64,000 nucleotides of DNA from Leucoraja ocellata. Its lineage: Eukaryota. A program made the position numbers and the translations under genes. How positions within the stretch are numbered: position 1 is the stretch's first letter; every line of letters begins with the position of its first letter. The notes under the pieces were generated by a model, which did not search any database, was not told the DNA's origin, and saw nothing but the letters and a program-made list of their open reading frames with translations. The stretch covers positions 1,178,001-1,242,000 of the forward strand of contig JAWMAR010000201.1 of NCBI GenBank assembly GCA_036785375.1, written 5' to 3'. Positions 6,148 through 63,924 of this stretch are shown one piece after another.

Positions 6148-6183
6148 AATTGGAAAACGCCACGGAACAAATAAAAAATGCCG
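6148..6183 (+). CDS. 36-nt A micro-exon, (E)LENATEQIKNA
   Basis: ttgttattctatttcag|...GCCG|gtgaga. Confidence 0.85.
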
Positions 6184-7294
6184 GTGAGAGATTGGTGGGA
6201 TATACTGTAATCTTTCCATTGAACGGTGTGTAATGTTATAGCTAATATTGACGTAATGTGAACATTTTAGGTGAGAGAGGCAAAATATTGGAGAACATTT
6301 GTGGGGCACACTTTACACAGAAGATAATGAGTGCCTGCTTCAGGCTGCTAGGTGTTGTAGCGGACGAGGATTGGATAGTGGCTTTTAAGGAGCAGTTGGA
6401 TCGGCACATGGATATGCAGAGAATAGGGGTGTGTGTGTGGGGGGGGGGGGGGGGGCGTGGGGGGGGGGGCGGTGGATTGGAGGCAGGCTGACGAGAATGA
6501 TCAAATCCTCGTGTGGGAAGGAACTACGAAGGTAGACACAAAATGCTGGAGTTACTCAGCGGGACTGGCAGCATCTCTTGAGAGAAGGAATGAGTGACGT
6601 TTCGGGAGATGTTTCTTCATACTGAGAGTCAGGGCCGAGGGAGACATAGTGATAAGGAAGGGTAAGGTGTGAAACTTTACTTTAAACAATAATGGCTAAA
6701 GGCTTGGTTATGGAAATTCATGTTCAACTTGTTCGAGAAAGCGAATTTGATTTTATAACGTAAATAAGGAGCAGACGGAATAATGTACTCGCCTGCTTTA
6801 GATACAGATCAGAACATTTTCTTTACATGAGGTTGGAACAAGAATAGTTTGTTTTTCATTAATTAAAAAATATATATGTAAATATTAAAATATCCCGATG
6901 GCTAGAGTAGTAAATAGATGCAGGGAACATTCTTGTGCTAAAGTCCCAATCTCTAGATGGGACACTTAAAGTGCCAAACTCATCATTAATGGAAATATTA
7001 TTTTCCTCACTACGGTAGCTGTGTGAATCTATTCCTCTTCGGTTTGCAAAGGCAAAGGATGTTCATGCAGTCTATAACATACAGCATTTTGGACCACTTG
7101 TTTTTACTTTGATGTCATCCAACATGATGTTATGATGTCGTGTGGACCCATGATTATCAAAGATCCGACGAAACCGATGAACTCGCCTGCAAACCATATT
7201 TGAAGTTGAAATGTGCCTTTTTAATGCCATTATTAAAAAAACCGTGTTGGCTGTGTAATCACTTGTTTGAAACGATATCAATTTTCCCCTTTAG

Positions 7295-7321
7295 AAGCAG
7301 ACAAATCAAATAAAGATAAAG
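7295..7321 (+). CDS. 27-nt micro-exon, (E)ADKSNKDK
   Basis: attttcccctttag|...AAAG|gtgaaa. Confidence 0.7.
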
Positions 7322-8041
7322 GTGAAAATAATACTCAAGATACGTAAATCCTTTTGACAATGCAGCCTATATTGTCAGCGCTATTATATAGAATATAGAC
7401 CGCGGGGGGGGGGGGGGTAATCTCTTCCCTGTACGGGACCCGACCTTTTCACTGTCGAGTCTCCCGTGTCGTTGGGCCTAACATCGAGGAGCCGGCTGCG
7501 GCCTCCAACCGGAACCTATTAAAAACTATCGCGTTGATGATGATGGCACATCGATGCCGTTTAAAATACGCTTGCTCCAGCTACGATATTGCAGCGTTTG
7601 TGACAATTACGAAATTTGACACAGTTCGCTTGTCCATAGCTACATCAGTGGCCCATATTTCAGCTATTCGCCCATAATGTCTCACCCCTATTTTGTGCTA
7701 CCTGACGTGGCAATGTTTAGTACAGCGTGATAATCTAACTATCTGCCATCCTGCCAATATGATCATTGGATGGGAACAGCGATCCGTTCTGCAATATTAG
7801 TTTCTCACACTCACTTCAGCAAGCATATGCTCTGATCTGCAGCATGTCGCCATGCTCCAGGTGAATATGTATCCATTCTGTGGGTGCCACGATGCTCTAC
7901 GCACTTATTAGGCCACTGGATCACATGCTACAGTGACACTATGACCAAACGCAATACATTCGTTTATTTTGATTATATATTCTTATGTATATTAATTGCG
8001 AAGGAAAGTTATGCAGTACATAATTTGTCTTTGCATTTCAG

Positions 8042-8077
8042 ATCTCGATGCTTTGGGCGAAAAATTGAGTGATACAG
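8042..8077 (+). CDS. 36-nt A micro-exon, (D)LDALGEKLSDT
   Basis: tgtctttgcatttcag|...ACAG|gttaga. Confidence 0.85.
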
Positions 8078-8523
8078 GTTAGACTACCAGAAATTAAATC
8101 TACATGAACATGGAGTATGAAATCTATCAACCCATATTCAAAGTAATAAGGTGGTCCGCAGCGATCAATTCGAGATCCTTCAAAACCAAATGTGTTCATT
8201 CTATGTCAATCAGAATTGAAATCAGCTAGTAGACACTAAAAGTGGTGCATACTATAAGCCCTATTCGCAAACACATACAAAGCAAAATTCTGGCACGAGA
8301 TATTCAGGACACGATTAATGACTACTAAGCAGGCCAACGTAGTCTTAACGTAGGCCAAATGAAACCAGTAAAACACATTTTTCTGTTCATTATAGTTATG
8401 GCAATCTGGAGTTGGGGAATTTATAATTAGATTGAGTATATGAACAGAAAGAAAGACTTATTGGTTGAAGAATTTATAAAAGTTGCTTGTGCGAAACAGC
8501 ATTTTTTTCATGTTTCTTGACAG

Positions 8524-8550
8524 AGAGGAAGCTGAAGGAAACACAATCCG
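8524..8550 (+). CDS. 27-nt B micro-exon, (E)RKLKETQS
   Basis: tgtttcttgacag|...TCCG|gtaaag. Confidence 0.85.
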
Positions 8551-8677
8551 GTAAAGCCGGGAATGAGTTAACACACAATTACTAAATAAAAAAATTGCAA
8601 CTTTGAATTTCGATGTGATTATTTTAATATATTATGATATATTTTTTACCCTATTCTCCTCACGCCCACTGCATCAG

Positions 8678-8704
8678 AGCTCTACGGGCAGTGCCAACCT
8701 GACG
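8678..8704 (+). CDS. 27-nt C micro-exon, (E)LYGQCQPD
   Basis: cactgcatcag|...GACG|gtaagc. Confidence 0.85.
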
Positions 8705-10299
8705 GTAAGCTAAAGCGAGATTTTGGCTAACAAAGTCATATTTAAATTTCACCAATGATATGCAAATGCAGTATGATGAACAGAAGGTAGAATTTCAACG
8801 AGTTTCTAAGAAATGTGTAAGCTATTTATTTGCATCAAGTAGAAAATCATTTAGTGACCGGAAATGCGGTGAAGTAGCGCGGATCTTCGGCAAGAACCAA
8901 AAAAAATAACGTTTACAGATGAAGAATTCTCATCTGTATTTGAGGACTTCAGAGTCAAATTCCAAGATACATTTATAGCGTTATGTAATACCGTCTTGTC
9001 TTCGCGCAGAATGGTCTTGGAACATTGAATATCTCAATAGCATGTGCGTGAGATCAGTTGATTAACTGGATCGAACAGTTATTTTCGCGTTATTGGTGGT
9101 TAGTTTAGAAAGTTAATATGTTGGCCATTGTCTCACAGGAAGCTGAAGTTACCTCTACTCAAAGCAGTCATGCTACTTCTTGAAACACGGGAAATTTCTT
9201 GTGAAAATAAGCTTGCCTATCGGGTGTGGCCACTACGGAGGGTTGTGCACCTCCTTTATGGCGACAGAAAGACAGTCACTGGGATTGTCATATAATTTAA
9301 TTGCAATAAATGATTTTAATGTCATTCTTGTTCAACTAGATAATGAATCCTTAGATTACCATTCCTCGTGGCATTTCTGGTAATCAGTGTTTTCACCGTG
9401 TGGGCGAGGGAAAATTCAGATTTCTAAGACTATAATACCTCCAATATCAGGATGGTTATTGGCGATTAAATGCAATTAATTTCTAGGTTCAAGGGTAATT
9501 CCCAATCATTGATTTCTTGCGGCATACAATATTCTTCGTAGACCTGGAGTAATGCACCATAGGGCACGGGGTCGATCTTTCCCCCCAGCCTAAGACATAA
9601 CCCAACAGATCCTCCTCATCTGCTGGATGTGTTGCGTCTGCCAAATAATTTCCGGTCTATAAAACGAATACGAATATAAACACTTGTAAACAGCAATTTA
9701 ATTGTTGGCTAAACTTGTTGTTATAGCATGCACCATTTACGAATGAAATGAATATATTCATCTATTTATTGCAGTAAGAATGCTGATTGATCAATTGGGA
9801 GGTAACGTTGCAAATAATGATTTACTTTATGTACCGACTGAAAATCTGACTCACATAGAACTTGTCTGCCCTCTGCCCTCTGCCCTCTGCCCCTCTCCCG
9901 CCCACATTTCACTAACGTTCAAGAGAATTGGTTAATGAGCACTATAACAGGAAAAAATGCATATACGTCATTTTTAACTGAATACGAAAACATGTCAATG
10001 TATGTTGTTTTTGGAGATACGAGCGGCTAATGCCACATGAGTTTTTAACGTACACCGCGGAATGTTATTGTGCTTCCCGGTCAGAGTTCACTTTCCTCCG
10101 ACCAACTCCCTCTTTACGCGTAAACTATTGCCGTGTATGTAGTAAACTTATTATCAGAAAGACAAACTTGATTTAAATTAACTACTTCAGCATCCGTTAA
10201 TGAATGGAAGTCTTTGCTAATTCCAAATACATTAAATAAAATGTCACGCATTTATTATTCGTAAATTAATGCTACGTATGTATGTTATTTGCTTCACAG

Positions 10300-10335
10300 A
10301 TATGATGAAAATGAAAAACGAACTGAAACAAAAAG
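10300..10335 (+). CDS. 36-nt A micro-exon, (D)MMKMKNELKQK
   Basis: ttatttgcttcacag|...AAAG|gtcagg. Confidence 0.85.
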
Positions 10336-11349
10336 GTCAGGATTGTTAAGAATTGTTTGGATATAACGGATCCAGAGTTTGACTGTGCAGAATGATAGCT
10401 TATTGATTCAAAACCGCCTAAGAGAGTGGCTTGTTTTAAGTATGTTGGCAATTCCAGTTCACGCTTTTCACCTAAAACATGGCTGACCATTTAATTTGTA
10501 TTGATCGCAATGGTTCTCTCTTTTGTCACCACACGTACACAGATTGAATACCAGGACGGAAGTACCCCATACATAACCATTTTCTTCCTTTTCCTCATAG
10601 CCTGAAGCATCCGTAAATGTAACAGTGAATATGTTTCTTTCACCTTCTGCTAATGTCCACCGCACGATCTATTTGCACTTCCCAAAAATAATGATGCCAT
10701 TATGCACCTGTATCTTATAACTTCTGAAGGCATTTCGTTAAAGGCGAACATGTTCTTCATGTCTTTCTCAAACACAGCTCAGCTGGATCCGACAAATATC
10801 TACTTCTGCACGTAATATAATTATACACAGATTTCTATTACAAATCTTATTGTCGGGTGCATGATAAAATACGTGATGGATATGCCAGTTTCTGGGGTTT
10901 CTTTATATGCATCCTCTATTATTATATACAAGCTAAGTAGGTAACATGAAGTCAAAGTCTCCCCTCAGTATTTGTGTGAAATCTTTTCATTTCTGGCAGT
11001 ATATGGAAGAGTTGGCTGGTGAAAATCCAACATCAATGCTCGACGGACATGGACGCTATTTATTCAACGATCACAGATAAATGGCAGTTGGCTTCCAAGT
11101 GAATGTAATTTGTGAAATACAGAAAAAATCGATTTTTGTTGTTCCCAGAGCAAGTAATCGATTGTCATTTCTTGGTGCTGGAGTTCTTAAATTCGGAACA
11201 CGCTTCAAGAGAAAGCAGTGCACTAATGTCAGTGAGCTTGAAGATATAGTCATTGTTCGTCAGTACTAGAAGGGATGAATGGTTGTGTGGCTCCATTAGT
11301 TACCACTCATGATTGCCCAATTGCTATTCTATTTTATACCATGTTACAG

Positions 11350-11376
11350 ATCAAAGACTTATTGAAAACAACTTAG
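11350..11376 (+). CDS. 27-nt B micro-exon, (D)QRLIENNL
   Basis: atgttacag|...TTAG|gtaaac. Confidence 0.8.
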   Translation: MKDLLKTT

Positions 11377-11999
11377 GTAAACGTTTTTGCAATGGAATCA
11401 TGTTGAATATTGTGGAATAATCGCAGAAAACTGATTGATAACAATGTACTAGACCATACGGAATCTACACTGAAGCTTCAATATAACAGGTGTGGCTGAG
11501 GTTTTATTTTAAGGACGGCTGTGCTCCCCGCACTGTGGTGCACAATACAAATCATCGCATTTCGCTTTGTCTCTGAACATAATTGGATGTGGTACCGTTT
11601 TGTCTCTCTCAATTAGAGCATCGGTTCGCTAGCGATCCAGTCGCTATTGCATTCCTCTGAATGAATCGTCCATTGGCGTCAAACAGTTAACGAAGGTGGT
11701 CGTTTCTTTTTGTGACATCGTTCTCTTAAATAATGTCGATGTATTGAGGTACTAGCGCATACTCAACATGCTGAATATACATATAGTATTCTTTCTTGAT
11801 ATATGTTTTGAAATACATTAATTGCACTGTCAGCATAGAAGCAGACGCTATCTGGGATGAGTTTCATCTGACTGTAGCGGCAGATTTTTATATCGTTCAA
11901 GAGATTACTCCCTCTAGCCATTAAGTGGAGTACATGATTAAGGAGAATGTAGTTATACGCACGTGAGCTTTTCTTCAGAGAACCTCAGAGGTTCTTCAC

Positions 12000-13140
12000 A
12001 GATAAATCTTCATAACACTGTCTATTGATTAATAAATTCTTTATTGTTGATGAAAGACAATAAGGTGTACATCCAAGCTTCTTCCGACTGTTAAACTATA
12101 ATCTTCGTCAAACTCCAGCATATCGCTTTTAAGGTTAGAAAACTACTCGTGTCTCTGTTACACTTCACATGGTCAAAGGGTATCCCTTCCTCGTGCCGGT
12201 CCAAAACTGAACTAAAAACTAAGCTTCTGCGCTAGAAACTTAGCTCCAAACACGCCCTAGAATACATCATAAATCCCACCCACATAATAATGGGCAGTCT
12301 AAAATTGAAAGACACATGCCATAATCAACGGCACACAAAACAAGCCAAATGGCCACTACATACTGGCTCCTAATTGTTCCGATGAACTCTTCCATCTTCA
12401 CTTTCTTCTTCTAGAAGCAAGCATAACTAGGTTATTGGTCTTATTAAAACAGTGGTTTTAATTTAAAGTCGTACTGTGCGCACCAAACCATTAAAATCAG
12501 GCATGTTACCCAATATTTTGTCCAAAACATAAAAGTCCAAAGCTTTGATAGCAGGAACGTCTTCCTCCATGTCCGATCAACAATGGATGTGTTGTAACAG
12601 TAATGCTGAAATGTGAAAATCCTTCACACGAATATCAGGATTTTTAGCAATAATGTTCACCATTAGGTTTGATTTAATTTATGGATCATTAACAGAGATT
12701 TCAAATCCCAGCTCAAGCTTTGGCCAATCTCTGTCAGGCTTACAGAGAGACTCTAGTTCATTGATTCAACTCTTATCGCTGTCAGTTCTCTGGAAACTTG
12801 ATCCGCAAGATGTTCTTCTGTGTTAACATATTTCAATTGTGCAGCATTAGTAACTCCCAATGCTCTTTCCATTGGCAGATTGCCTCTGTCCAAATCCAAC
12901 TCTCTGGTTTCTTTGGCTCTATCATCTAGTGGAATACTTTCACAATTGTCGCTGATCCACTTGGAAAGTGTAAATCCTCCCTTATTGCAAAGGGAAGTCA
13001 GATGTTCGACTGGTAGAATGGCTTACTGCTCCGTAGACATAGATTTTAAGCAATCATCCACGTAGAAATTATTTTTCAAAGTGGTTATTACCTCCTCTGG
13101 AATAATTTATCTACTGATAAATTAGAAATGCCGGTGATGA
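12000..13140 (-). mobile_element. Degenerate BEL/Pao LTR-retrotransposon pol fragment
   Basis: manual translation PEEVITTLKNNFYVDDCLKS...LCNKGGFTLSKWIS...LDLDRGNLPMERALGV with an internal stop; boundaries approximate. Confidence 0.8.
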
Positions 13141-15205
13141 AGCCATACAATCATGACTTCAATGAAAGTACCAGCAAGGAATCTGTAGAGATATCTATCA
13201 TCCCATTTTAAACAGCTCATTCATTCTTGAAAGAAATGTTCTAATTACGAGATGTGTTTAATTTATTAATACATGTAGGCTTCTATGTATCTTTATCCCT
13301 ACTGTAATTTCGGGGAATATCTTTGATACTTGATGCCCGATTCATTTGCGAATGCTGCTCATGAAAAGAGCATTTCTCAACCATATATAAATAGCAAACA
13401 CGTGTATGAGAAGGTGCACGTTTAGTTTACTTTTTCCCTTTTGTTGAACTGGCTTTTCTTCCACAGATACTGCTTGATCTGCCTAGATCTTACAGTAGTT
13501 TATCGTTTGCAGCAGTTTCCATAATCTATAGTTCTGTTATTCTCCAGATCAACTATACTGTCGGAAATGCCATAGATATCTCCATAGCCTTTCCAACATA
13601 ACATACCAATTGACTCAGAAGCAAAAATCTGCCTCCGATCTACGTTAAACCCTTTTCCCCGCGGAATCATAAATGATGCTCTCTCTCCTTTTCGCCACCT
13701 TTACCATTGTACGCCGAAGAAGGAGCGTGCAGACTGGAACTGTGAGGTGCCACAGCAATAGCCATTCGATTATTCTTCCTGGTCTGACTCTAAGATGATG
13801 TATATTATATTTTCCTACTCAATTATTCTGGTAATAATCATGCGATTTCTACCTGCACTATTACATATGCATTGTGCTTTTATGAAATGATTATTGCCAG
13901 AAATAATCTGTACGTTTCCCATATTTCTCTTTCACTTCTTTATCCCCTTGGTATTCGCATTATGCTATTTTACACGTAATCTGCTTCACAACCCTGATAA
14001 TATTTTGCTTTGTTTTACCGGAGTATGCCACTGAGAACTTAGACACATTATTGTTTGCTCACTCATTTTAACCTCCTGTACAACCAATGAAATATTTGAA
14101 GCCCTTTGCTCCCAGCCTTGTGTATCCGTCCATGGATATGCAGTAAAGTGCAGACCTTCTGTCTGTGAAGTAGATGAACTGTACTATATCGATGTATATT
14201 GCAGGTTTATTTTAAGCAACACATATCAACAAAGAATTGTTGTTTCTTTTGCAGTAATCGATACACTGAAAATAGATCTAGATATTGCAAGTAAGGGTCC
14301 TTTAAATATATACTCTCGAACGGAGAGCATAAATGCGACAGCATGTACATTTCCACTGCTTTACAACTGGACGGATATGATCTGGTACCTGCAGAAAAGA
14401 AAACGGAGTCACAGATTATAATAACATCCTGAATTGCAGGAGAAATCTTGACGGACAAATTCATGTCGCATTTCTTTGCATACGATTGGGATTAAGCACC
14501 TAGTCGATATTGCTTGTTTTTATTGAACGCTTTTATTCGAGCTAATGCACAACCAATGTTATTTTATATGCTATGTTTGCTTAACTAATAATGACCATTC
14601 CAACCACGTATATTGAACATTGACATTTCTTCCGAACACAATGTCAAAAAAATGCATTGAAATTTTAGCTTGGAGGAGGAAAGGAATAACAAATAATAAT
14701 CCGCAGACACGGCCAAAATCTAAATCCTTATCACTCCATATCATTATTTTACGGAGCATACATCTCAGCACAATAAATCAAGTAAAACCATAAGCTGTGT
14801 CTTCCAAGCAACTGAAGATATATCTTTTAAAAATAAGACTATTCCCGTACGCAAGCGGGATAATTAAATTAGTTAATGCAAATTTTCGTCAATCGGATAT
14901 CTTCACTTCATCTGCAGATTGGCTTCATGGAAAAGAATAGAAGGATGTTGAACATTGCGTGTTTCTATAACTGACTGTCGACCAAAGGATTGGAGTGTGT
15001 GAGGGGGCAGGTTTCCAACGCAGACATGTACGTCGTTTTAACTTTTGGGGGCTTTTCAGAACAACAAAATTTGAACTTCCAATGAAACCAGATTTCACAA
15101 TTATTAATGACGTCGAAAGTTAGTGAATTGCGTGTAAACCGGTACTTTGAAGCAAGTGTACATTTCAGTTGTGCTACGATTTGTTTTTTTTTTAATGCTT
15201 CTCAG

Positions 15206-15232
15206 AAAGGCAACAAGGACAATGTGACGAAG
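15206..15232 (+). CDS. 27-nt C micro-exon with GC donor, (E)RQQGQCDE
   Basis: tttttttaatgcttctcag|...GAAG|gcaagt. Confidence 0.75.
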
Positions 15233-15504
15233 GCAAGTATGAAAAATCAGTTCGTATTCTTCGGCCAAAATATATGAGATAAAATGTATTGGAGTTGCTC
15301 CTCGCGGCAGTCTCTGACATCGATGCATATTCAATTTACTCCTTAAAACTACCTTATGCTACTGTAAAACAATGGGTTGTTCATGCAAAATACCAATTCC
15401 TAAATTCTTCTGACACTGTATCTGCACACGAGTATGCAAAAATGTTCTAATATTACATATCCCGCGCTCTCTAACTACCAAACAATTGAAGACTGCGTAA
15501 GGAA

Positions 15505-15815
15505 CGCAATGGCGGCGCATTGATAAAATAACTAAAATATATCCAGCGCCAGGGACACGCGTTCGATCCTGACTTAGGGTGGTGCCTGTTCAGAGTCTAT
15601 ACGTTCTCTCTATGACCACGTAGGTGTCATCCGGTTGCTCCCGTTTTTACCCATAATCCAAATTGTACGGTTTTATAGATTGATTGGCTTTGGCAAAATT
15701 GTAAATGGTCCCTCGTGCGTAGGATAGTGTCAGTGTACGGGTGATGGCTGTTCTGCGCGGACTCATTGGGCCGAACGGCGGGTTTTCGCGCTATTTCTCC
15801 AAAGTGTACAATCTA
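15505..15815 (+). mobile_element. tRNA-derived V-SINE (HE1-like), diverged
   Basis: B-box-like gttcgatcctgac, central V-like domain (tacgttctctctatgaccacgtagg...ccggttgctcccgtttt), LINE-like tail gggccgaacggc. Confidence 0.75.
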
Positions 15816-16604
15816 AAGAATCAATTCAACAAACAAGTATACTTTTGCGTTTAATTATTTTAAATGAATTCAAAATAAACTCATACGTTGTCAACGAGCA
15901 TGCTGTATGCTGAATCTCACAGCTTATTCATTCACTATAAACACAATCTAATTTTCACTCAACAATCCAAATAAGAGTGAAATGTAATGATACACGCCAT
16001 TTGGAATTAATGCAAATACTTTGTTACACCAGTGATGCGACGCGGACAGGCAGTGTAGCTCATTCCCCTGTTGTTCTCATTATTGCCCCAATTAAAACTG
16101 GTGGGACTGCAGATAATTTCATCACGTTCGCGACGCCTATTGTTGGAGCAGCCTATTGTCCTCATTATAAGGTTTTGGTACTAAAAGGAATTATTAGAGG
16201 AAAAAGATAGCGTGGTGTCTGATGAGCAACATCGGTGAACGGTTATGACGGTTTGTGCAATCGGGATGAAGTAAGGCGATTATATATCTAAACTCTAGTT
16301 TAGAATCCTCTGCCGAGGGGATAAGTCTGTGTTTGCTTGTGTTCGTTTGTTCCGGTGAAGGCATTTTGCACACGGCAACCAGCCAACAGTCTCTTGTCTT
16401 TTTGTTTTTGTTTTCACTTTTAATTTCATGTTTTTGTGTATCTTATCGTATCTTATCTCATGTTATCGTATCTTATCGTATCGTATGAAGTGAATTAAGA
16501 ATTACTGTTGTGCACGCCCCATGGGTCGTTATACAAGGCCTCATGGGCAAAAGTGATCATAATATTGTGGAATTCTGCATTAGGATGGAGAAGTGTCTCG
16601 GTTA

Positions 16605-16730
16605 ATACAGAGACTAGGGACCTGAACCTGAATAAAGGAGACATTGAAGGTATGAAACTGGAATTGGCTAGGATAGTCTGGCAGATTATACTTAAGGGTT
16701 GACAGTGGGGATGCAATGGCAAATATTTCA
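16605..16730 (+). mobile_element. CR1 ORF2 fragment
   Basis: LNLNKGDIEGMKLELARIVWQ. Confidence 0.6.
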
Positions 16731-17112
16731 TACATTCTCTAAATCACACAGGGAAATGGCCGAACCTATTCACCCTCGTTGCATTCCTTTGAAGTTCAGC
16801 TTGGAAGAAATACAATCACCATAGCTATTACCCACAAAATTATAGAACAAGAGGACCTCAGCCAGACCTAAACCTGGAAACTGCCAAGAATCTCGGGATT
16901 TAATGCGTGCACCAAATGTCCTCTTCAACCAATTTCCCATATAATGCCATGCCTTGTTATTTGATTCCAAAAGGCGTTATATTTAATACTATGACACTAT
17001 CCCGTAAAATGCCGACGATAACAGGAATCGGCAATATAACAACACGCCTTGCAGCTCAGTAATAAACCGAACATCCAGCCACCGACACCTGTAACGTTTT
17101 CTCTATTTTTAG

Positions 17113-17148
17113 ATTTGGTTAATTTGAAACATACACTTCAAGATTCAG
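17113..17148 (+). CDS. 36-nt A micro-exon, (D)LVNLKHTLQDS
   Basis: ttttctctatttttag|...TCAG|gtgagt. Confidence 0.9.
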
Positions 17149-18488
17149 GTGAGTATTAAACCAATTCCTTCGTATCAAATGGAGATGAATTTACGTTGCA
17201 CCGTCAACCAGCAAAAAGGAAAGTCTGCACAGAGTATAATATTGCAATATTTTATTATTAAAGGAAAGTGCAATGTGCCACATGTGGTTATGCACATGGC
17301 ATTCATTGAAACATATTCGCACTGCTTATAATGACATAACAACTAAATAAATATACATACGTATATTTTCTATGGTCGGGAATTTCTACGATGGAGAAAA
17401 TGAAACTGAAGTTCATTTAGAGATATTGTTGAAATGCCGAGGGGGTTGTGTGTAGTTCTCGTCAATGTGTTAAACGATCATTTGACCGCGGCATATTTAT
17501 CGATCAAATTAGTGAGGCTAAATGTCGTAGTCTAGATCTATTTATGTGGGGTGCGCAGGTGAGAAGTAAACAGATAGTATCTGAGGCAATTATCACAAGG
17601 CGGTATTAGTGTTTCAAAAAAAGAATGAAGTTCGCAACCGAATGAGACATTATATAGTTGACTTTGCTGGAGTTCTGAGAAAGGCAGAAACATTGGACAC
17701 ATTCTGCCACATGGACCAGACTTCACCAATAAATCAAAGCAAAAATGATCGAAGAAATTGCTGCCATTGATCTCCGACATACTCCGTAATGTGTTGTTAT
17801 CTCGCCGAGGTATTAATAAAGGAAATAGACCTGGGTGCTATGATGGTATCACGGAAGTGCAGGAGGGATGGACGTTCGAATTCATCTGGTTACAATTATA
17901 CCATTCAACAATAGCTTCCGACCCAGGAGATAATCTTGCTGCTTAAAGAAGTTGACTCTGCAGCTGCGTGTATGGGCAAAACTAGACGCCCTTCACGCAA
18001 CATGCATTGCGAGTGTGCAACTCCACTAACCAATACCCATAACTGGCGCACAAGAACGAGCCTTGGTTTCCTGACGACTGCCGCTTTAGCGTAATATTTT
18101 AATGAAGGCGTTTCAGGACATAGGCAAGTATAGTAGATAGTTTGAAAAAAAAAGCCCATCCCATTTCTGAAAAAAAAGAAATGTTATTTAAAATATGGAA
18201 CTCGGAAAAATCAACACTTTGCACGCAAACAGAACTATACTATTATGTCCAGCTTCGTGTGGAAATATTAGAGTTGGTAATGTCAACCTTGTTAGAGGAG
18301 AAGTGGTAACCGGATGTAGTAGATATCTATGATTTTTTTAGAGACGGGGAGGCTAATAAGCAGTAGAATCGTACTTTTTTTTGTTGGAGATTCCCCCAAA
18401 AAAGTACAGCGCATTTTGCTTCGTGACAGTTTCTAACCGATTACCACGAGTTCGCAACTGGTTTTGAACACCCCATCATGGGTACAGA

Positions 18489-19125
18489 TGCGGTCGGTAG
18501 TCTGTTACCTGCGATGGAGATGGTGAGGTCTAGTAACGGTAGGGAGATGTCCAAGGACCCAAGCAGTCTTTCCAAGTGAGGCAGAGTTTCACCTGCACCT
18601 TCCCCAACCTCATCTACTGCATCCGCTGTTCCAGGTGTCAACTGCTCTACATCGGCGAGACCAAGCGCAGGTTTGGCGATCGCTTCGCCCAACGCCTCTG
18701 CTCAGTTCGCAACCATCAACCTGATCTCCCGGTGGCTGAGCACTTCAACTCACCCTCCCATTCCGAATCCGACCTTTCTGTCCTGGGCCTCCTCCAAGGC
18801 CAGAGTGAGGCCCTCCGCAAATAGGAGGAACAGCACCTTGTATTTGGCTTGGGTAGTTTACCACCCAGCGGTATGATCATTGACTTCTCCAATTTTAGGT
18901 AGTCCTTGCTTTGTCCATCATTTCCCTTCCCAGCTCTCCCAACAGCCTACTGTCTCCGCCTCTGCTTTCGTATTTTCCGCCGCCCCCACGACATCAGTCT
19001 GAAGAAGGGTCTCGACATGAAACTTCGCCTATTCCTTCGCTCCATAGATGCTGCCTCACCCGCTGAATTTCTCCAGCTTTTTTTGTCTACCTTCGATTTC
19101 TCCAGCATCTGCAGTTCTTTCTTAT
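18489..19125 (+). mobile_element. 5'-truncated Penelope-like element: GIY-YIG endonuclease plus pLTR, with a short inverted RT piece at the 5' end
   Basis: NLIYCIRCSRCQLLYIGETKRRFGDRF...HFN on +; DISLPLLDLTISIAGNRL on -; CTGAAGA...GAAA motif at 18999-19022. Confidence 0.9.
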
Positions 19126-19519
19126 ACATCTGAAATCCAGAATCATTGTCTTTAACACATGTATCCAGTGACACATTTCTGCTGATAACACCACCTCAAA
19201 AGCACATTAAAAAGTACGCAGTAACGGTTGTTCATATACTCGTTAAAATGTTCGCAGGATGTAACTTCAAGACTTCATCACGAGTGTACTCCGAAGAAGC
19301 AGGGTTACCAATAATTCTCTTGCGTTTCAAAATATTTCTCATGGCGATGTATTCGACAAATGCGATTGATCAATAAGTGGTAATGTTCGCCATAACACAT
19401 CCCGGATGATTGATTAAAATATGTATAATTGATACAATGTGATACAGTTACGGAAAGGCAGCGATAACAGTATAAATATCTCCTGTTGATCTTGATATGA
19501 TCACTGTTGTTTCCATCAG

Positions 19520-19546
19520 AGATGAAGTTCCAACTATGTCAAGAAG
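19520..19546 (+). CDS. 27-nt B micro-exon, (E)MKFQLCQE
   Basis: gttgtttccatcag|...GAAG|gtaggt. Confidence 0.88.
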
Positions 19547-19633
19547 GTAGGTTGTGCATTTGTTCTATGCTTTGTTTTTGAGCCTGTATGTTTTTGCCGT
19601 GAACCTTTAACACTTCGTTGCTTATGTTAATAG

Positions 19634-19660
19634 GACTTGAAGATCAGCTTCATCGCAAAG
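19634..19660 (+). CDS. 27-nt C micro-exon, (G)LEDQLHRK
   Basis: cttatgttaatag|...AAAG|gtaatc. Confidence 0.85.
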
Positions 19661-20664
19661 GTAATCACCTGGATCTAATCAGAATACAATGCTGAAGGCA
19701 TCCTAATATTTGCATTTTGACATTCACAAGGAAGCGATTGTAAACCACTTTTAAAAATTGAACCCCAGTCCAATTACTGAGACGCCAGATTCGTTTGCAC
19801 GCCCATTTCTTCTTTGACAATTGAAAATTGAAATGTGACTATTTGTGTACTCTTCAATTCGCTGAGATTTACCGTCTTTCCTCTCTGTGAATTAAACTAA
19901 CACCATCTTCAAACCAATAGTAGTTTCAGTTCGCCCCATGCCTGACTAAACACTTATTCACCAGTATGGACTACTTATTTATGCGAAGCAGTGCATTGTG
20001 AAACATTGCGTGATTTAATTTGTCTGCTACTGTTTTATTTCCCCATTATAATTTCCCCTGCTACGGACTCTTCGTGATAACATTTGTTTTCCCCATTGCT
20101 ATTATACACACAAATCTATAGAAACCTTCAACCTCCACTCATTAGCTTACGCTCAAATTTGACGCACCCCTACTTATTATTTAATGTGTATTGTTTATGT
20201 ACTTCTGAGGCTGATTATCTTCTTCTGTTTTGTGATCTTCGCATCTCATAATATCGCTAACTTATTTAATATTCTATATTTAGGTTAAAACAGAGCAAAC
20301 AATTAATATAATTCAACCGTGCTCTACAAATGCACGGCAATTACATTGCCATACATTTAATTGGCTTTTCCAAGTCTTTAGTGTTCGGCTCGAGATATAT
20401 ATTTTTCATAGATTTATTGGTGACCGTTCTTCTTCAAAGGACAATGCTGAACATATGGTTTCAGTTATGTAACGTGTCAGAAAATCAATGCTCTTTATTC
20501 TGTTATATTCGATTTGCATACCAAATGTGTGCACAATTCATTTATTCGGGAGATATCACACCATCGATATACACTGATGGAAACGGATGAACCGAGCAGC
20601 TATATTTATTCAGTCTCTTAACGGTACACACATAACACAAACAGACGATGTCACACAGAATGTT

Positions 20665-20925
20665 TCAGATGCTGGAAAAATCGAAGGTAGATAAACATGC
20701 TGGAGAAACCTAGCGGGCGAGGCAGCATCTATGGAGCGAAGGAATAGGTGACATTTCGGGTCGAGTCACTTCTTCAGACTGATGTGGGGGTGGTGTGGGC
20801 GGGAAGAAGAAAGGAAGAGGAGGAGACAGTGGGCTTTGGGAGAGCTGCGAAGGGGTGGGGAAAGGGGGAGAAAGCCTTCTCCCACTTTTCCCTCCTTCTT
20901 TCTCCCACTACCCCCACATCAGTTT
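20665..20925 (-). mobile_element. Penelope pLTR fragment with small inversion
   Basis: reverse complement of the 18900-19110 tail. Confidence 0.8.
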
Positions 20926-22012
20926 GATATATACGAAGTGGTGCAGTTATAAATAACGCATATGATTCCCTTGGAAAAAAGAGTTCAGTTACCACCGTTG
21001 TACTATTGATGATCATCATGCAGCACGGTCACTTTGCCATTTAGCAATAAACCTGTGGCATATTTTGGACCTTTAATTTCGCCTTACCATCATACGATCC
21101 GCCAAGCAGGTTATCTGCGTCACTCACGCTTCGTCGAATCGAAAGTTATTTGCTCAGTTTTGCTCATTTTTCTCGATACCACTGAACATAAAGAACATGA
21201 AGACAATTCAGAGCGTTAATAATAATTCACATTTAATATGTGTAATCATGGTTCCTGTTTGGGTAATTATATCAGACAGGTACAAACATATATGAAGTGT
21301 ACAATCTCAGAAGTGAAAAATAGCAGGCCTGATTAAATGTCACCGCAAACAAGCACGGTATTTACCAGTATAGAACAGTTAGAAAAAATAAAAAAACATT
21401 TCTTGATGTTGGAGGCGATAGTATTGTTGCTCTGCTGTAAGATACAGTTAAGTGTTACACGACAAATCATTTATGCCGTAAAAAATAATCACCAGTACCA
21501 TAGTAAAACACAAGTCTCTTAAAGCTGCCTCATCGGTTATGCTGTAAACCGTTTACACCATTTCCCCAGCGACACTCAAATTATTTATTCGTCAGACAGG
21601 GACATGAGTATTTTCTGAAAGCGAATTTTCGATTAATACCAGTAAATAATCCATACTTCGGCCACCAAATTCCATGTCAATAAAAAACCTGTTTTACAAT
21701 GATCCCGTCCCTCCAATATCCCCAAATATTTTTCTTCACTATCCAATCAATTACCGATATACTGCAATTAGTTTTCACGCTGGGGCTATTTATCCAGTGG
21801 ACGCCTAAAGAAACATTGGCGACATCGACGTTCTACCCATTCAGCAGTGGCAGGAGATCCATCCGCAGCGTGACCGATATGCCATGTTGGACACAGGCGA
21901 AACGCCTGCCTTATATTTATCCAAATTTACTGAGATTACTACAAAGTTTGTCATTAACATAACACGAGAAAACAGATGAGTCGAGAGAACGACTGTTTTT
22001 TTTCATACGCAG

Positions 22013-22039
22013 ATGCCGAACTATTTGCGAAAAACATAG
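22013..22039 (+). CDS. 27-nt micro-exon, (D)AELFAKNI
   Basis: ttttttttcatacgcag|...ATAG|gtaacg. Confidence 0.8.
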   Translation: MPNYLRKT

Positions 22040-22204
22040 GTAACGTAACAATATATATAGTTTTTAATTATTATCACTGTACTTCATATATTCCGGCGAA
22101 ATATACAAAATACAATATGTGGAGATCCATACAAATAATGCTTCGTTTTTCCTCGATATGTAGTAATTCCGATTAATCTAGAGAGAGTGCAGATCCTGGA
22201 TATT

Positions 22205-22645
22205 GTCAGGACTCGAGCTTGAGCAATAGGGAAATATTGGGTTGACTAGGGATTTTTTCAATTGAGGTCAGGAGCTGAGGGGGTGATGTTATAGATGTGT
22301 ATAAGATCATGAAGGCAATACATAAGGTGAATGCATATTGACTTTTTGTCCAGGGCATGGTAATCACTAACAGGTTTAAGGTGGGACGAGAGGTGTGAGA
22401 GGATTTAATAGGAAAATCAGGGGGTATCCATTTCACTGAGAGGGTGTCGGGTATGTGGAACAAAATGCCAGAGATGGTAGTTGAGACACGTTATTTAAAA
22501 GTTACTTGGATATGTAAACGCGTAATGGAAGTTTGGATGGATCTGGCCCAAGCGTGGGAAAACGGGACTAGCTTATTTGAACAATTTTGGTCGGCATGTA
22601 CGACTTGGGGTGAAGAGCCTGCTTCCGTCCTGTATGGATCTATGA
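22205..22645 (+). mobile_element. CR1 3' fragment
   Basis: gggggtgatgttatagatgtgtataagatcatg...ttcactgagagggtgtcgggtatgtggaac, typical CR1 ORF2 C-terminus. Confidence 0.75.
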
Positions 22646-22999
22646 CGCACAGTTTAGCTGATTTTGTTCAGTCTTAAACATTCATGGTAACAGTGCGAAA
22701 TTATGTCGAAAATCAGCAACACGGATATTTCCACGAATATTCGTTTATGTCCCTTTTTTGATTGAGCATTTTCCGTTTTATGCTTTTGCATAATACTGCG
22801 AAGCTGATTCACGACAAATTTAGCTACAGGAAATAAACCATGAACAATTTAATGCCTAGCGGTCAGTCCTGGGCGCTCGTAATCAAATATCAGTTGAAAT
22901 AAATATGGAAAATAATAATAGTTTAGTTACTTGATAACAAGCCATAACTCTAAAATACGAATGCAGAAGTTGTTAATCTTCACTTAAACCACCCCCCCC

Positions 23000-24460
23000 C
23001 CCCAAATGACATGACCTCAACAGCCGGAGGTGATAATTAATTGCACAGATTTACCTCCCTCTGGCTAAATAAAATGTACCTCATATCTATTATGAAGGCA
23101 CGTTCTTTTATTCTGTGACCGTGCTCTGCTGGTCCTAGACTATACCACTGATAGGAGCACCCCCTCCACATCCACTCTTTTCAGGCCTTTTATAATAGGT
23201 GTTAATTAAAATCCCCCATGTCCTTTCAACCGCCACCTAGCACAGGATCAACGCAATCAAACGCACCTCATACGTCAACTCAATCATCTGCAGAGATCAT
23301 TCATGTAAACCTCCTCTGGACGCTCTTGAACTTCAGTTCATCTTTTCTCAGATACTCGAGATGTGGGCTGATTTGTTCGTACCGAACACACGTGGTGCTG
23401 AGGAATCAGGGAGATTGCAAAAGGGCTTAAGCAGGTTGGGAACGTGTGCAAAGAAGTGAAAAATTAAACACCGTGTAGTAAAGTGTATGGAGATGTAGTT
23501 TTGTTTCCCCCCAATGGGGAAAGGATTCAGAAATCAGAGGTCAAAATGAACTTGGGAGTGCTGGTGGAGAATTCCCAAAAAGGTTAATTTGCAGGTTAAG
23601 CCTATGATAAGGAAGCCAAATCATACGTTAGGAATAATTTCGAACGGTCCAGAATATAAATGCAAAGATGTATGGCAGTGGCTGCATAAGGCGCGGATGG
23701 AATATTGGGAGCACAATACTTGGCCCAATATCGGAGGAAGGTCTTGCTGGTCATCTAGGGACTCCAGATGATGTTTACGAGAATGATCCCGAGGATTATT
23801 GTTTAACGTATGCGGAGCGTTTGATGTTGCTAGTCTACTCACTGGCGTTTAGCAGAATGTTGTGGCAACTAATTGAATTCTACCGCATCATGAAAGGCCC
23901 AGGAAGAGTAAATGTGACGTTTTCATTAGTGGGAGAGTCTATGGCACGAGGACTCGGACTAAAAGGAAGTACATTTACAATGGAGATGAGGATGGGTTCC
24001 TTTAGACAGAGAGTGGTGCATTGTTGGAATTCATTACCATTGACTGCTATGGAGGCGAAGTTAGTCGGTATATTTAAAGCGGAGATTATTAGGTTCTTGA
24101 TTAGCAAAGTCCTCAAATATTACGGGAGAAGGCAGGAGAATGGGCTTAAGAGGGAAAATAGATCAAAATAATTCAATGGCGGTGCTGGATTGGTGGGCGA
24201 CATGGCCTAATTGAGCTTCTTGGTCTTATGGTCTTATGGGCTTTATTCCTTCTTACCAAACTATATGACCGTACTCTTTACTACGCTGTATTCCATTTGC
24301 CACTCCTTTACCCACGCTCCCAACCTGTCCAATTCATTTTGCAAACCACCAGCTTCTTTAAAATTACCTGCCTCTTCACGTATCTTTATATAATCCGCAA
24401 ACATGGCCACGAAGCGATCAATTCCATCGTGCAGATTATTAGCATAAAACGTGCATAGTT
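23000..24460. mobile_element. Cluster of CR1 fragments in both orientations
   Basis: ORF 23668..24171 contains EMRMGSFRQRVVHCWNSLP; flanked by - strand CR1 pieces. Confidence 0.75.
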
Positions 24461-24524
24461 GCCAAAAAATATGGCCACAAAATCGTGGAGGTATTGACAG
24501 TTGCTATTACATTATTTTTTAAAG

Positions 24525-47129: not shown

Positions 47130-47165
47130 AGATACGCAAACTTAATGACGCTCTCGGGTATACAG
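47130..47165 (+). CDS. 36-nt A micro-exon, (E)IRKLNDALGYT
   Basis: gcctttcacttccag|...ACAG|gtatga. Confidence 0.9.
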
Positions 47166-49084: not shown

Positions 49085-49111
49085 AGGAAAGACTACGCCA
49101 ATATAAACGGG
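49085..49111 (+). CDS. 27-nt B micro-exon, (E)ERLRQYKR
   Basis: tgtgcattttaaag|...CGGG|gtaagg. Confidence 0.85.
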
Positions 49112-49258
49112 GTAAGGAACTACAATATCAGCAAATGTTTAGTATTCTTTGTACATAAACCAAATATATATTTCTGCCAATAGATTCCGAAGTATTCGGA
49201 AGAGTTACAACATGTTATAAAACAAAACATTACACGACTGTCATATTATTTCCCGCAG

Positions 49259-49285
49259 AGCTCGATGACTGCGAGAACAACGACG
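49259..49285 (+). CDS. 27-nt C micro-exon, (E)LDDCENND
   Basis: ttatttcccgcag|...GACG|gtaaga. Confidence 0.88.
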
Positions 49286-50689: not shown

Positions 50690-50716
50690 CAAGATCAATT
50701 ATTGCAAAGGAAAAGG
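50690..50716 (+). CDS. 27-nt micro-exon, (A)RSIIAKEK
   Basis: cattactttacag|...AAGG|gtaaat. Confidence 0.65.
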
Positions 50717-51969: not shown

Positions 51970-52005
51970 AAATACTCAGACTCAGAAACGTTCTGGAAGA
52001 AAACG
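51970..52005 (+). CDS. 36-nt A micro-exon, (E)ILRLRNVLEEN
   Basis: tttctgctcttgtag|...AACG|gtgagg. Confidence 0.9.
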
Positions 52006-53162: not shown

Positions 53163-53189
53163 ACCTGCGATTACTTGCACGAGAAAACG
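53163..53189 (+). CDS. 27-nt B micro-exon, (D)LRLLAREN
   Basis: ttcctcctatgtttacag|...AACG|gtaaaa. Confidence 0.85.
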
Positions 53190-55409: not shown

Positions 55410-55445
55410 ATGTGACAGAATTACGAACATCTCTGCAAATATCAG
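55410..55445 (+). CDS. 36-nt A micro-exon, (D)VTELRTSLQIS
   Basis: ccttacgttctag|...TCAG|gtacgt; an internal cag gives an in-frame 27-nt alternative. Confidence 0.85.
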
Positions 55446-56977: not shown

Positions 56978-57004
56978 AAGAGAAGCTGAAGCGCTGTCTG
57001 GAAG
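56978..57004 (+). CDS. 27-nt B micro-exon, (E)EKLKRCLE
   Basis: gcgattttcag|...GAAG|gtatgt. Confidence 0.9.
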
Positions 57005-58724: not shown

Positions 58725-58751
58725 AAATCAAACAAAGAAGATGTAAGAGAG
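58725..58751 (+). CDS. 27-nt B micro-exon, (E)IKQRRCKR
   Basis: cttgttttatatag|...AGAG|gtgagt. Confidence 0.88.
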
Positions 58752-58852
58752 GTGAGTGTACACATCGTTGATGTTAATTCAAAACATTGTACCATCCCAT
58801 TATGACGGAAAATCCGATTTATTTTGGGTATTTTACAATTTTATATGTATAG

Positions 58853-58879
58853 AATTAAAGGAGGGCCCACGTGGAGAAG
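58853..58879 (+). CDS. 27-nt C micro-exon, (E)LKEGPRGE
   Basis: ttttatatgtatag|...GAAG|gtaaga. Confidence 0.88.
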
Positions 58880-60612: not shown

Positions 60613-60639
60613 AAAATAAACTCAGGCGCCTTCCGAAAG
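60613..60639 (+). CDS. 27-nt B micro-exon, (E)NKLRRLPK
   Basis: tttatttccgaag|...AAAG|gtagac. Confidence 0.82.
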
Positions 60640-60760
60640 GTAGACATTTACTGATTTTACTTAATATTTGGTCAATTAGAAACATTTATGTGCGCTGCAT
60701 ATATCACTGAATAATCACATGTTTAAGTTCAAATTTGTACTCTGTCTGTATTTAAACTAG

Positions 60761-60787
60761 ACCCCAGGGACAAGACTGCTGACAGTG
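60761..60787 (+). CDS. 27-nt C micro-exon, (D)PRDKTADS
   Basis: tctgtatttaaactag|...AGTG|gtaagt. Confidence 0.85.
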
Positions 60788-61993: not shown

Positions 61994-62028
61994 ATTTGGG
62001 AAGAGCTGTGTCCAAACAAAGGACACAG
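61994..62028 (+). pseudogene. Dead A-type micro-exon, (D)LGRAVSKQ..DT; 35 nt with no donor, abutting a CR1 insertion
   Basis: cattattttgcag| acceptor; ends GACACAG like other A exons but is followed by ctctt and then CR1 sequence. Confidence 0.55.
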
Positions 62029-62029
62029 C

Positions 62030-63068
62030 TCTTGAGGTAGTAATGGGGCATTTGGATAGCAGTTAAAGGATTAGTCCAAGTCAGCATTGATTTATGAAAG
62101 GACAATCATGCTTGACTAATCTTCTGGAAGTTTTTGAGGATGTGACAAGTAAAACGGGTGAAGGGGAGCCAGTGGATGTAGTGCATCTAGACTTTCAGAA
62201 AGCCTTTGATAAGGTCCCGCACGGGAGACTGGTGACTAATTCCCGCTTCCAAATTATTAATATATATAGTTGCGGCCCCAACACTCGCCACTGCCTGCCA
62301 TTCTGAAAAGGACCCGTTCACTTCTACTCTTTGGTTCCGGTCTGCCAACCAATTTTCTACCCATGTCAACATCCTACCCCAATACCATGTGCTCTAATTT
62401 TAGTCACCAGTCTTCCGTGCGGGACCTAAAGACTTTCTGAAAGTATAGATACACTACATCCACTGGCACCACTTCATCCATTTTACTTGTCACATCCTCA
62501 AAATATTTCAGAGGATTAGTCAAGCATGATTTCCCTTTCATAAATCCATGTTGACTTGGACTAATCCTTTACTACTATCCAAATGCCCCATTATTACCTC
62601 TATAATAATTGACTCCAGCATCTTTCCCACCACCGAAGACAGGCTAATTGGTCTGTAATTCCCCGTTTTCTCTCTCGCTCCTTTCTTGTAAAGTGGGATA
62701 ACACTAGCTATCCTCCAATCCACAGGAACTGACCCTGAATCTATTGAACATTCGAAAATTACCACCAATATGTCCACTATTTCTAGAGCCACCTCCCTGA
62801 GGACCGTGGGATGCATACCTTCAGGTCCAGGGGATTTATCATCCTTCGGTCCCATTAGCGTACCCAATACTATTTCTCGCCTAATGAAAATTTATTTGTT
62901 CCTCTACCCCCTTAGATCCCCTGTCCTCCAGTACATCTGGGAGATTGTTTGAGTCTTCCTTAGTGAAGACAGATCCGAAGTACCTATTCAACTCTTCTTC
63001 CATTTCCTTGTTGCCCATAATAATTTCACCTGTGTCTGCCTTCAAGGGACCCACATTTGACTTTGCGG
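62030..63068. mobile_element. CR1 RT fragment (-) with an inverted duplicate (+) at its left end
   Basis: KGQSCLTNLLEVFEDVT...VDVVHLDFQKAFDKVPH on +; DKSPGPEGMHP...DWRIASVIPLYKKG..GNYRPISL on -. Confidence 0.9.
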
Positions 63069-63271
63069 GTCTGAAATGGCTATATCCGTGCAATATCACT
63101 CCATGGGTCAATGTGGACCGTATAACTTATACAGGGCGAAAATGGTTTGCTCAGTTTCTTGTCAGTTAAACATATGACGTCATCTCACCTTTTGTTCATT
63201 GATCTGCGCATTGTAAGAACATCTGAAAGGCCTGTAAATCAGTGTTAATGTATCCATTAATTTTTTTGCAG

Positions 63272-63307
63272 CCGTTGCGAAATTAATGCAAGAACTGGAA
63301 GACACAG
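63272..63307 (+). CDS. 36-nt A micro-exon, (A)VAKLMQELEDT
   Basis: tttttttgcag|...ACAG|gtgacg. Confidence 0.88.
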
Positions 63308-63773
63308 GTGACGTGTTTAGTTTTGATAGGCACGACTGATTCACCTTGGCTCACAGCCCCCCTACCCCCCCCCCCCCACATTTTCCGTTTAGCTAAACCC
63401 CTCATCGATGTGTAACCTCAGAGATGTTCACATATGCATTGTTTTAATTAGCATTGACGATGGAAAACAACTATCTTAATTTACAAAAGTTAATTATGCG
63501 TATACTTCTCATGTAGGGAACAGACATATTACACCAAAACAACTACAATTAAATGCATTTGTTGTTAATTTGAATTGTGCTGTTCATCAACTGAATAGAA
63601 ATAATTGGTGATTATCGATCAGAATCATTGAGTGAATATTTCCCAATTATTAGTCACTTGTTAAGATTATTATATGATTGAACATAGTTCGGTATATATG
63701 AGGTATTTTCAAATGCAAACAATATTTCTTATTTTTTATGTATCATTGATCATTATATTTTTATTATTTGTAG

Positions 63774-63799
63774 AAGGGCGCTAAAGCAGTGTGCGAAAG
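63774..63799 (+). pseudogene. 26-nt B-type micro-exon with 1-nt deletion (repairs to E-G-x-LKQCAK)
   Basis: ttattatttgtag|AAGGGCGCTAAAGCAGTGTGCGAAAG|gtcaat; in-frame TAA as written; 98 nt before the C exon. Confidence 0.65.
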
Positions 63800-63897
63800 G
63801 TCAATTTGCGTTTTACATTTTTGCGTCTTGTGGAATGCCTTTCATTTCGCAATTCCTGTGCTTATGACCCAATAATCCTCCTATATTCCGCACACAG

Positions 63898-63924
63898 AAC
63901 TGAATACCCATACGCGTGATGAAG
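63898..63924 (+). CDS. 27-nt C micro-exon, (E)LNTHTRDE
   Basis: ctatattccgcacacag|...GAAG|gtgagg. Confidence 0.85.

Follow-up and report, generated by a model that had tools for sequence, protein, structure and literature searches.

Does a run of 27- and 36-nt exons in a skate genome encode one long coiled-coil rod, or a chain of short coiled coils joined by hinges? The question is raised by a 64,000-nt stretch of Leucoraja ocellata DNA (the window; GenBank assembly GCA_036785375.1, a 3.44-Gb genome, contig JAWMAR010000201.1, hereafter C201, positions 1,178,001 to 1,242,000 of the forward strand), for which an initial annotation had proposed three exon classes, A, B and C, with A and B forming three heptads and C a hinge after each. 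We favor a different answer, namely that the 41 micro-exons of the window probably supply 406 residues to a coiled-coil rod that is at least 1,300 residues long and that, like its paralogues, would end in a B30.2 domain.

Micro-exons of the window and their frame

The window lies within the first of three micro-exon arrays on C201 (arrays 1, 2 and 3, described below). A splice-site scan using generic weights called + strand candidates of 27 nt 21 times and of 36 nt 14 times, and of any other length between 18 and 48 nt at most three times; on the - strand of the window no length received more than two calls, so that 27 and 36 nt are not enriched there. The 35 candidates picked by splice score, without regard to translation, contain stops in only one case in phase 1, the frame of the initial annotation, vs 24 and 17 cases in phases 0 and 2, respectively, and 34 have G as the last base. 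Among 214 splice-picked exons of two arrays, 4 are stopped in the same frame vs 139 and 114 in the others, and it is also the frame of RefSeq models of relatives. A profile trained on the arrays found 38 window exons and made no call in 460 kb of control strand (173 kb and 287 kb). The final catalogue holds 41 phase-1 candidates (1,218 nt, 406 residues), 13 of 36 nt, 27 of 27 nt, and one of 21 nt.

That these exons are chance splice-like words would agree with the lack of RNA support in four runs, but is vanishingly improbable: the tests of length, strand, frame, order and cysteine placement all oppose chance, and spliced RefSeq relatives share the modules. For the set as a whole this explanation is refuted. 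The window micro-exons are genuine as sequence features, and single weak exons (5047, 60613, 60761) may be false calls.

The positions in the initial annotation are right, in that its first 36-nt exon is 6148-6183 and its last 27-nt exon 63898-63924, and its four example peptides are present as AG..GT-bounded phase-1 exons (55410-55445, 56978-57004, 58853-58879 and 8678-8704). As limits of the array 6148 and 63924 do not stand, because exons at 1838 and 5047 precede them and the array runs far past both window ends. A fourth class, D, was overlooked; it is hydrophobic at positions 4 and 5 and occurs six times in the window, each time directly before A. The class string of the window is OBAOABCDADAOABCDAODABAOAxCCABCDADABCCBOAC. 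Counted from A to A there are 12 complete modules, six of 21 residues, three of 39, and one each of 30, 37 and 57; the commonest long module is A-B-C-D (39 residues, or 5 heptads + 4), and A-B-C-A was never found as a complete module. The exons and related features are as follows.

1838-1864 and 5047-5073, + strand: two 27-nt phase-1 exons upstream of 6148, unclassed and B type (weak acceptor), respectively
6148-6183 and 7295-7321, + strand: module 1, 21 residues, A and a polar 27-nt exon with no hydrophobic core residue
8042-8077, 8524-8550, 8678-8704 and 9775-9801, + strand: module 2, 39 residues, A-B-C-D; the C exon has G and P, and was added by hand with a low profile score
10300-10335 and 11350-11376, + strand: module 3, 21 residues, A and D
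14255-14290 and 15206-15232, + strand: module 4, 21 residues, A and a polar 27-nt exon (GC donor, Cys at position 7)
17113-17148, 19520-19546, 19634-19660 and 22013-22039, + strand: module 5, 39 residues, A-B-C-D
24525-24560, 25889-25915 and 27554-27580, + strand: module 6, 30 residues as called, beginning with A and ending with D; another exon could be concealed by an N stretch in the first intron
29830-29865 and 30497-30523, + strand: module 7, 21 residues, A-B
31617-31652 and 34390-34416, + strand: module 8, 21 residues, A and a polar 27-nt exon
37310-37345, 39496-39516, 39614-39640 and 44204-44230, + strand: module 9, 37 residues, A, a 21-nt B variant, C and a further 27-nt exon, with an N stretch in the last intron
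47130-47165, 49085-49111, 49259-49285 and 50690-50716, + strand: module 10, 39 residues, A-B-C-D
51970-52005 and 53163-53189, + strand: module 11, 21 residues, A and D
55410-55445, 56978-57004, 58725-58751, 58853-58879, 60613-60639 and 60761-60787, + strand: module 12, 57 residues, beginning A, B; 58853-58879 is C with G and P, and the last two were added by hand and have weak sites
63272-63307 and 63898-63924, + strand: module 13, A and C, extending beyond the window
8524-8704, 19520-19660, 39496-39640, 49085-49285, 58725-58879 and 60613-60787, + strand: short-intron B-C pairs
34266-34292, + strand: B-like exon remnant with a donor and no AG acceptor, 97 nt before exon 34390; second-best match of a donor-anchored scan
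63774-63799, + strand: B-like exon remnant, 26 nt from AG to GT, a base too few to keep frame, 98 nt upstream of exon 63898; best match of the same scan

The introns of the B-C pairs are only 87-147 nt long vs a window median of 1,366 nt, which suggests that B and C were duplicated as one unit. The remnants at 34266 and 63774 may be decayed exons or base errors; unless they are the latter, some 21-residue modules may have arisen through loss of B. Three exons following A (7295, 15206 and 34390) are polar and carry no hydrophobic core residue.

Heptad register, probable stutters and possible hinges

The hydrophobic core assigned to A positions 2, 5 and 9 holds in the window, with large hydrophobics in 13/13, 12/13 and 13/13 exons, respectively, and the full A consensus that accompanied it is matched by 7 of 13. 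Over 159 A exons from the three arrays, these positions are large hydrophobics in 92%, 79% and 82% of cases, vs 26% at position 12. The further assignment of module positions 12 and 19 to the hydrophobic core was not borne out, both being mostly small or polar: over the three arrays A12 is T in 41 exons, A in 25, L in 24, S in 15 and K in 12 (n=159), and B7 is K in 68/132. Lone 27-nt exons between two A exons (n=91, three arrays) have a large hydrophobic at position 4 in 88% and at position 7 in 4%. Cysteines within A and A-following exons lie at d positions (A5, A12, B7) in 35 of 42 cases, d making up 14.5% of sites (p=1.5e-23); this clustering gives independent support across the exon junction to the 2-5-9-12-16-19-23 lattice, which the hydrophobic positions show to be a true a/d lattice.

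Periodicity at 3.5 residues in the 406-residue window peptide is 0.481, vs 0.305 for exon-order shuffles (0/300 reach the observed value), 0.378 when short exons alone are permuted (5/300) and 0.189 for residue shuffles. Exon order matters in all three arrays, each with 0/300 exon-order shuffles reaching the observed periodicity. Short-exon permutation is not significant in the distal, A-B-rich part of array 1 (24/300) or in array 3 (28/300), which is to be expected if short exons can stand in for one another there. Trained on arrays 2 and 3, a heptad model placed 11 of the 13 window A exons in the register g-a-b-c-d-e-f-g-a-b-c-d, and over 43 exons called 22 shifts at a lower penalty and 16 at a higher one, located in runs of several 27-nt exons. 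The 21-residue modules chain without a register shift for about 55-70 residues in the window, and downstream runs reach 198 residues. An a/d repeat of 3.5 residues extending over several heptads, as in a heptad coiled coil, is therefore present, with d positions often polar. The continuity of register across exon junctions, which the initial annotation had described, is real and well supported, and A+B (36+27 = 63 nt) does equal exactly three heptads, here set in what is probably a long coiled-coil rod. Such a register is expected for genes of this type; the exon grammar and its scale are new.

One break per module was also proposed, each with a helix-breaking C exon, giving short three-heptad coils with a flexible C hinge after each, like beads on a string. 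Six of the 12 complete modules are 21 residues long, with no C and no break, and stay in register for the 55-70 residues noted above, so that this arrangement is unlikely. It would explain why the share of G/P/N/D is higher in C (0.233) than in B (0.132), why register shifts concentrate in C-containing runs, and why the core is interrupted by the three polar exons at 7295, 15206 and 34390. The mean helix penalty is likewise higher in C than in B (0.50 vs 0.38), a gap inflated by a class definition that strips a leucine from C. Nevertheless, just 6 of 35 C exons contain G or P (4 of 35 contain P), the C examples originally chosen being extreme, and the downstream two thirds of array 1 are mostly A-B repeats. 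In A-B-C-D modules, 11 residues, a heptad plus four, separate residue 23, at which the core of C ends, from residue 34, at which that of D begins, and a stutter (+4) can be absorbed in coiled coils as a hendecad without a hinge, according to passages of PMC4786415. The 39-residue module has the length of a stutter and so would need no hinge.

A low-confidence, single-chain, single-sequence AlphaFold model of a ray relative from Narcine (mean predicted local distance difference test score 53.8) breaks the rod helix only at 54-60 and 148-157. Both breaks fall on C-type units rich in G/P/N/D, as the hinge model would have it, and the helix continues through other C-type units. On the evidence of this model and of exon composition, some C exons, a minority, are probably hinges, while C as a general helix-breaking linker does not hold and a rod of three-heptad segments each closed by a hinge is not supported.

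Array 1 and its neighbours on the contig

In window coordinates array 1 extends from -32.6 to +253.9 kb (287 kb, 129 exons, 1,318 residues) and ends at a long interspersed nuclear element (LINE), 1.2 kb short of an N gap at +255 kb. Array 3 lies on the - strand from +255.9 to +408 kb (~56 exons), tail to tail with array 1 at the gap, and array 2 lies on the + strand from 428 to 937 kb (199 exons), head to head with array 3. The predicted terminal exon of array 2 is in phase 1 and encodes a B30.2/SPRY domain (Pfam E 5e-15), followed by a stop and AATAAA; its best PDB match is the BTN3A1 B30.2 (1.8e-26). All three arrays open with C/D-rich modules and continue with A-B repeats, and because they share this layout they are read as three paralogues, of which two would have 3' ends inside the gap. 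One gene across arrays 1 and 2 is unlikely, because the opposed array 3 lies between them. A type II lectin or scavenger-receptor stalk was also considered and set aside, no such domain being present in 1.26 Mb and a B30.2 being present instead.

Array 1 might instead be broken, rearranged or misassembled, arrays 1, 3 and 2 having once been one gene with an inverted middle, or array 1 being a decaying copy without ends. Its start lies beside a remnant of a G-protein-coupled receptor (GPCR) gene and tandem NACHT-LRR (NLR) copies, its end at the LINE beside the N gap; neither a 5' nor a 3' exon was found for it, two of its B exons look decayed, and four RNA runs showed no RNA. The NLR copies, three in tandem and ~95% alike, occupy -125 to -47 kb on the + strand, their common sequence stops at -46.8 kb, and the GPCR remnant sits between them and the array start; these two observations are what bears on a possible NLR-B30.2 fusion, in which the rod would be spliced to the NACHT-LRR gene upstream. 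Yet each array passes from C/D-rich modules to A-B repeats as separate paralogues would, stops are depleted in the frame of array 1, and the second breakpoint that an inversion requires shows no N gap. An orphan 3' end on unplaced contigs (24 exons and a B30.2; see below) also weighs against breakage, though nothing links it to the array 1 gap, and no other contig overlaps either flank of the gap between arrays 1 and 3. We regard such breakage as rather improbable, and continue to read array 1 as a paralogue in its own right.

A B30.2 family of cartilaginous fish

The genome's five closest B30.2 copies are found on contigs C3233, C3305, C253 (two) and C3092, and 27/36-nt arrays lie upstream of those on C253 and C3233/C3305. 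C253, surveyed by 20 samples of 10 kb and then in larger stretches, has several family arrays on both strands between 738 and 1,926 kb with two B30.2 exons, one stretch being an inverted duplicate across an N gap. C3233 and C3305 carry the orphan 3' end, which reaches the contig end. These two contigs are haplotype-like, and their exons differ at 1/729 bases where the overall difference of 1.24% predicts about 9; they have only repeats in common with C201.

The array 2 B30.2 matches domains of Narcine (77%), Hypanus (68%) and Scyliorhinus (64%). In a tree of 162 B30.2 domains, from which 15 near-duplicate isoforms were left out, the family forms one clade (18 tips, support 1.0) on a long branch, its named members being rays, skate, sharks and chimaera, i.e. 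all cartilaginous fish; as to a sister group, the midpoint root lands on the clade's own branch. The Narcine RefSeq model joins units matching array exons in the same frame. In the chimaera Callorhinchus milii, XP_042192744.1 (older model XP_007898089.1) has a 1,697-residue rod followed by a family-clade B30.2, and its residues 230-900 tile with the A/B/C/D profiles, C-D-A runs included, with Z 13.1 vs 6.2 for a bowfin coiled coil and 2.0 and 1.7 for TRIM proteins. The two RefSeq versions of this protein differ by 12 indels, including four 9-residue and four 12-residue blocks, and among RefSeq isoform pairs from four further members the differences are 9, 9, 9, 9, 12, 18, 6, 16 and 25 residues. 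The support that these relatives give to frame and cassette structure applies to the family and does not extend to the exons of the window itself. A word-based search found no longer proteins with the family B30.2, the chimaera rod region as query returned only itself and the older model, and the best ESM Atlas score (0.87) was uninformative.

Several results weigh against a rod gene with a B30.2 end at array 1. Three weaker window exons (8678, 60613 and 60761) were put in by hand, and the zero stops of the joined arrays are a product of the filter, with no evidential value. Two B exons (34266 and 63774) look decayed, both preceding C-like exons. Position 16 after A is hydrophobic in 8 of 13 window exons, the other 5 having no hydrophobic a residue there. 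A look-up for window positions 7250-17200 listed no RNA data set with this sequence. Four RNA runs over window positions 6001-26000 gave depth on repeats alone and no exon joints among the matches listed, a null result that is uninformative because the match of tissue and species to the window was not established. BLAST identities between arrays and from array to chimaera protein are just 21-24%, and the 5' parts align no better than exon-shuffled controls. The 1.26 Mb read holds no B30.2 exon besides that of array 2, and none between array 1 and the opposed array 3, so that a B30.2 for the window's gene is assigned by analogy. Hydrophobic-exon and other scans found no first exon, signal peptide, Ig or RING, and no convincing transmembrane (TM) exon, upstream of five array starts.

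Further searches for a 5' end agreed. No 5' domain turned up around the arrays in motif scans covering Ig, lectin, SRCR, fibrinogen, C1q, TNF, RING and B-box; of 354 + strand frames lying upstream of arrays 1 and 2, the 150 longest were run against Pfam and gave LINE pieces alone. Translated comparison of the upstream regions returned repeats alone, CpG patches near the starts were repeats, and the N-terminus of the chimaera protein had no match in the skate genome. An IgV/IgC exon was not found upstream of arrays 1 and 2, the 5' ends being possibly unassembled or more distant.

Chicken BG genes are a close comparison, with a presumed coiled-coil tail encoded by 13-36 exons of 21 nt (sometimes 24), one heptad each, preceded by IgV and TM exons and followed by a 3' untranslated region exon (passages of PMC4046983). 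Both systems have a coiled-coil tail in many tiny symmetric exons, and the alternative splicing and multigene cluster described for BG in that source are likewise features in common. Unlike BG, the skate unit is a 36+27-nt pair of three heptads, there are about 129-199 exons per array, B30.2 forms the end of the paralogues, and IgV and TM exons were not found. Butyrophilins, whose heptads ahead of B30.2 vary in number and which are present in cartilaginous fish (parts of PMC12841164), resemble the family in the order of heptads and C-terminal B30.2, BTN3A1 being the paralogue's best PDB match, but have few heptads where this family has about 190-290; moreover, Ig and TM were not found here and a long separate branch of the tree bears the B30.2. 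B30.2-bearing TRIM proteins likewise place a coiled coil before B30.2, and RefSeq names relatives 'TRIM39/58/69-like' and 'A33-like', whereas the present rod is 10 times longer and micro-exon coded, and RING and B-box are absent from six family proteins (SPRY alone) and from a regex scan of 1.06 Mb of + strand. Because neither the Ig domains of butyrophilins and BG nor the TRIM domains were found, the window's gene is set apart from these groups as a variant of such tails. Also close are the chimaera models, named 'nuclear-pore anchor-like' (XP_042192744.1) and 'myosin-2 heavy chain-like' (XP_007898089.1), which share the A/B/C/D modules, the B30.2 clade and a 1,700-residue rod; these are automatic models with misleading names, and the likeness to the window's gene is at module level. 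No paper on a rod-B30.2 micro-exon family was found in the literature covered, which excludes most subscription journals. Separately, a bowfin 'A33 protein' model combines a sequon-rich coiled coil with a TM segment at its N-terminus and PRY-SPRY at its C-terminus; it may be a type II protein whose B30.2 lies outside the cell, or else a fused model.

In the rod that we favor, each predicted 36-nt (g-a-b-c-d-e-f-g-a-b-c-d) and 27-nt (e-f-g-a-b-c-d-e-f) exon pair makes three heptads and the pairs chain unbroken, with L/I/V/M at core a and a mixture of L, T/S/A, K and C at core d. All exons are symmetric, which allows copies to be gained, lost or skipped with the frame kept. In the N-terminal third, in which the window lies, added C and D exons bring some modules to 39 residues and move the register by +4, presumably as a stutter, and the minority of C exons rich in G/P/N/D would likely unwind locally into true hinges. 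For the window this model predicts uninterrupted coil in modules 3-5, 7-9 and 11-12, a hendecad spanning C-D in modules 5 and 10, and unwinding at 8678, 58853 and 60761 alone. Two or three chains may zip in parallel into a rod of ~200 nm, the rise of a coiled coil being 0.15 nm per residue, and this would keep the B30.2 heads far from a putative N-terminal anchor; the oligomer state and the side of the cell are equally putative. On a much smaller scale, butyrophilin and chicken BG proteins may use their heptad tails in an analogous way.

A tentative alternative, less probable than not yet ahead of the hinge and breakage models, places the rod outside the cell or in a lumen, as a secreted or type II membrane protein that is glycosylated, has interchain disulfides at d, and is possibly a trimer with 9-residue inserts as beta-layers. 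N-x-S/T sequons number 33 in the three arrays vs 20.3 in residue shuffles (p=0.002) and 17.2 in column shuffles, although recent exon duplicates inflate these counts and the window itself has no excess (1 vs 2.0 expected). Cysteines and polar residues at d would suit an extracellular rod, and the 30-residue modules (19 A-to-A intervals) equal three heptads plus a nonad; parts of PMC4786415 describe nonad and two-residue inserts making beta-layers in trimers. XP_042192744.1 begins with a short hydrophobic stretch, as such a protein might, then a basic cluster, which a cytoplasmic rod fits equally, and the stretch has no match in this genome. The B30.2 of butyrophilins is cytoplasmic, as stated in portions of PMC12841164 and PMC4046983.

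Combined, these ideas lead to a bolder proposal, on present evidence unlikely: that a cartilaginous-fish family at least as old as the chimaera split builds B30.2-tipped rods of 200-300 nm from a four-letter exon alphabet, with splicing setting length and stiffness, as a molecular ruler that is extracellular and stapled by disulfides. Whether a 36+27 pair is retained or skipped would then change the rod by three clean heptads, and skipping one 27- or 36-nt exon would shift the register with a stutter, nonad or hinge. The family would have escaped annotation because its exons are 12 codons long at most.

Provided that they are expressed as predicted, these would be among the most finely fragmented vertebrate protein-coding genes, and would take the small-exon heptads of BG and butyrophilin from a 21-nt unit in tens of exons to a 36+27-nt unit in hundreds. 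One contig bears arrays of about 129, 199 and 56 micro-exons, and at least two other contigs bear more, with the family reaching from chimaera to rays, and RefSeq carries it only as 3' fragments or under unrelated names. The arrays offer a natural series for how stutters, nonads and hinges arise through exon gain and loss.

Other features of the region include two single-exon GPCR frames, presumably GPR139-like, on the - strand at -185 kb and -175 kb, with a decayed copy at -45 kb just upstream of array 1. A 1,517-codon open frame on the - strand at ~+374 kb, inside array 3, is probably a retrotransposon polyprotein. Within the window, an inverted repeat at 62064-62571 with 144-nt arms (90% complementary) is probably a small DNA element.

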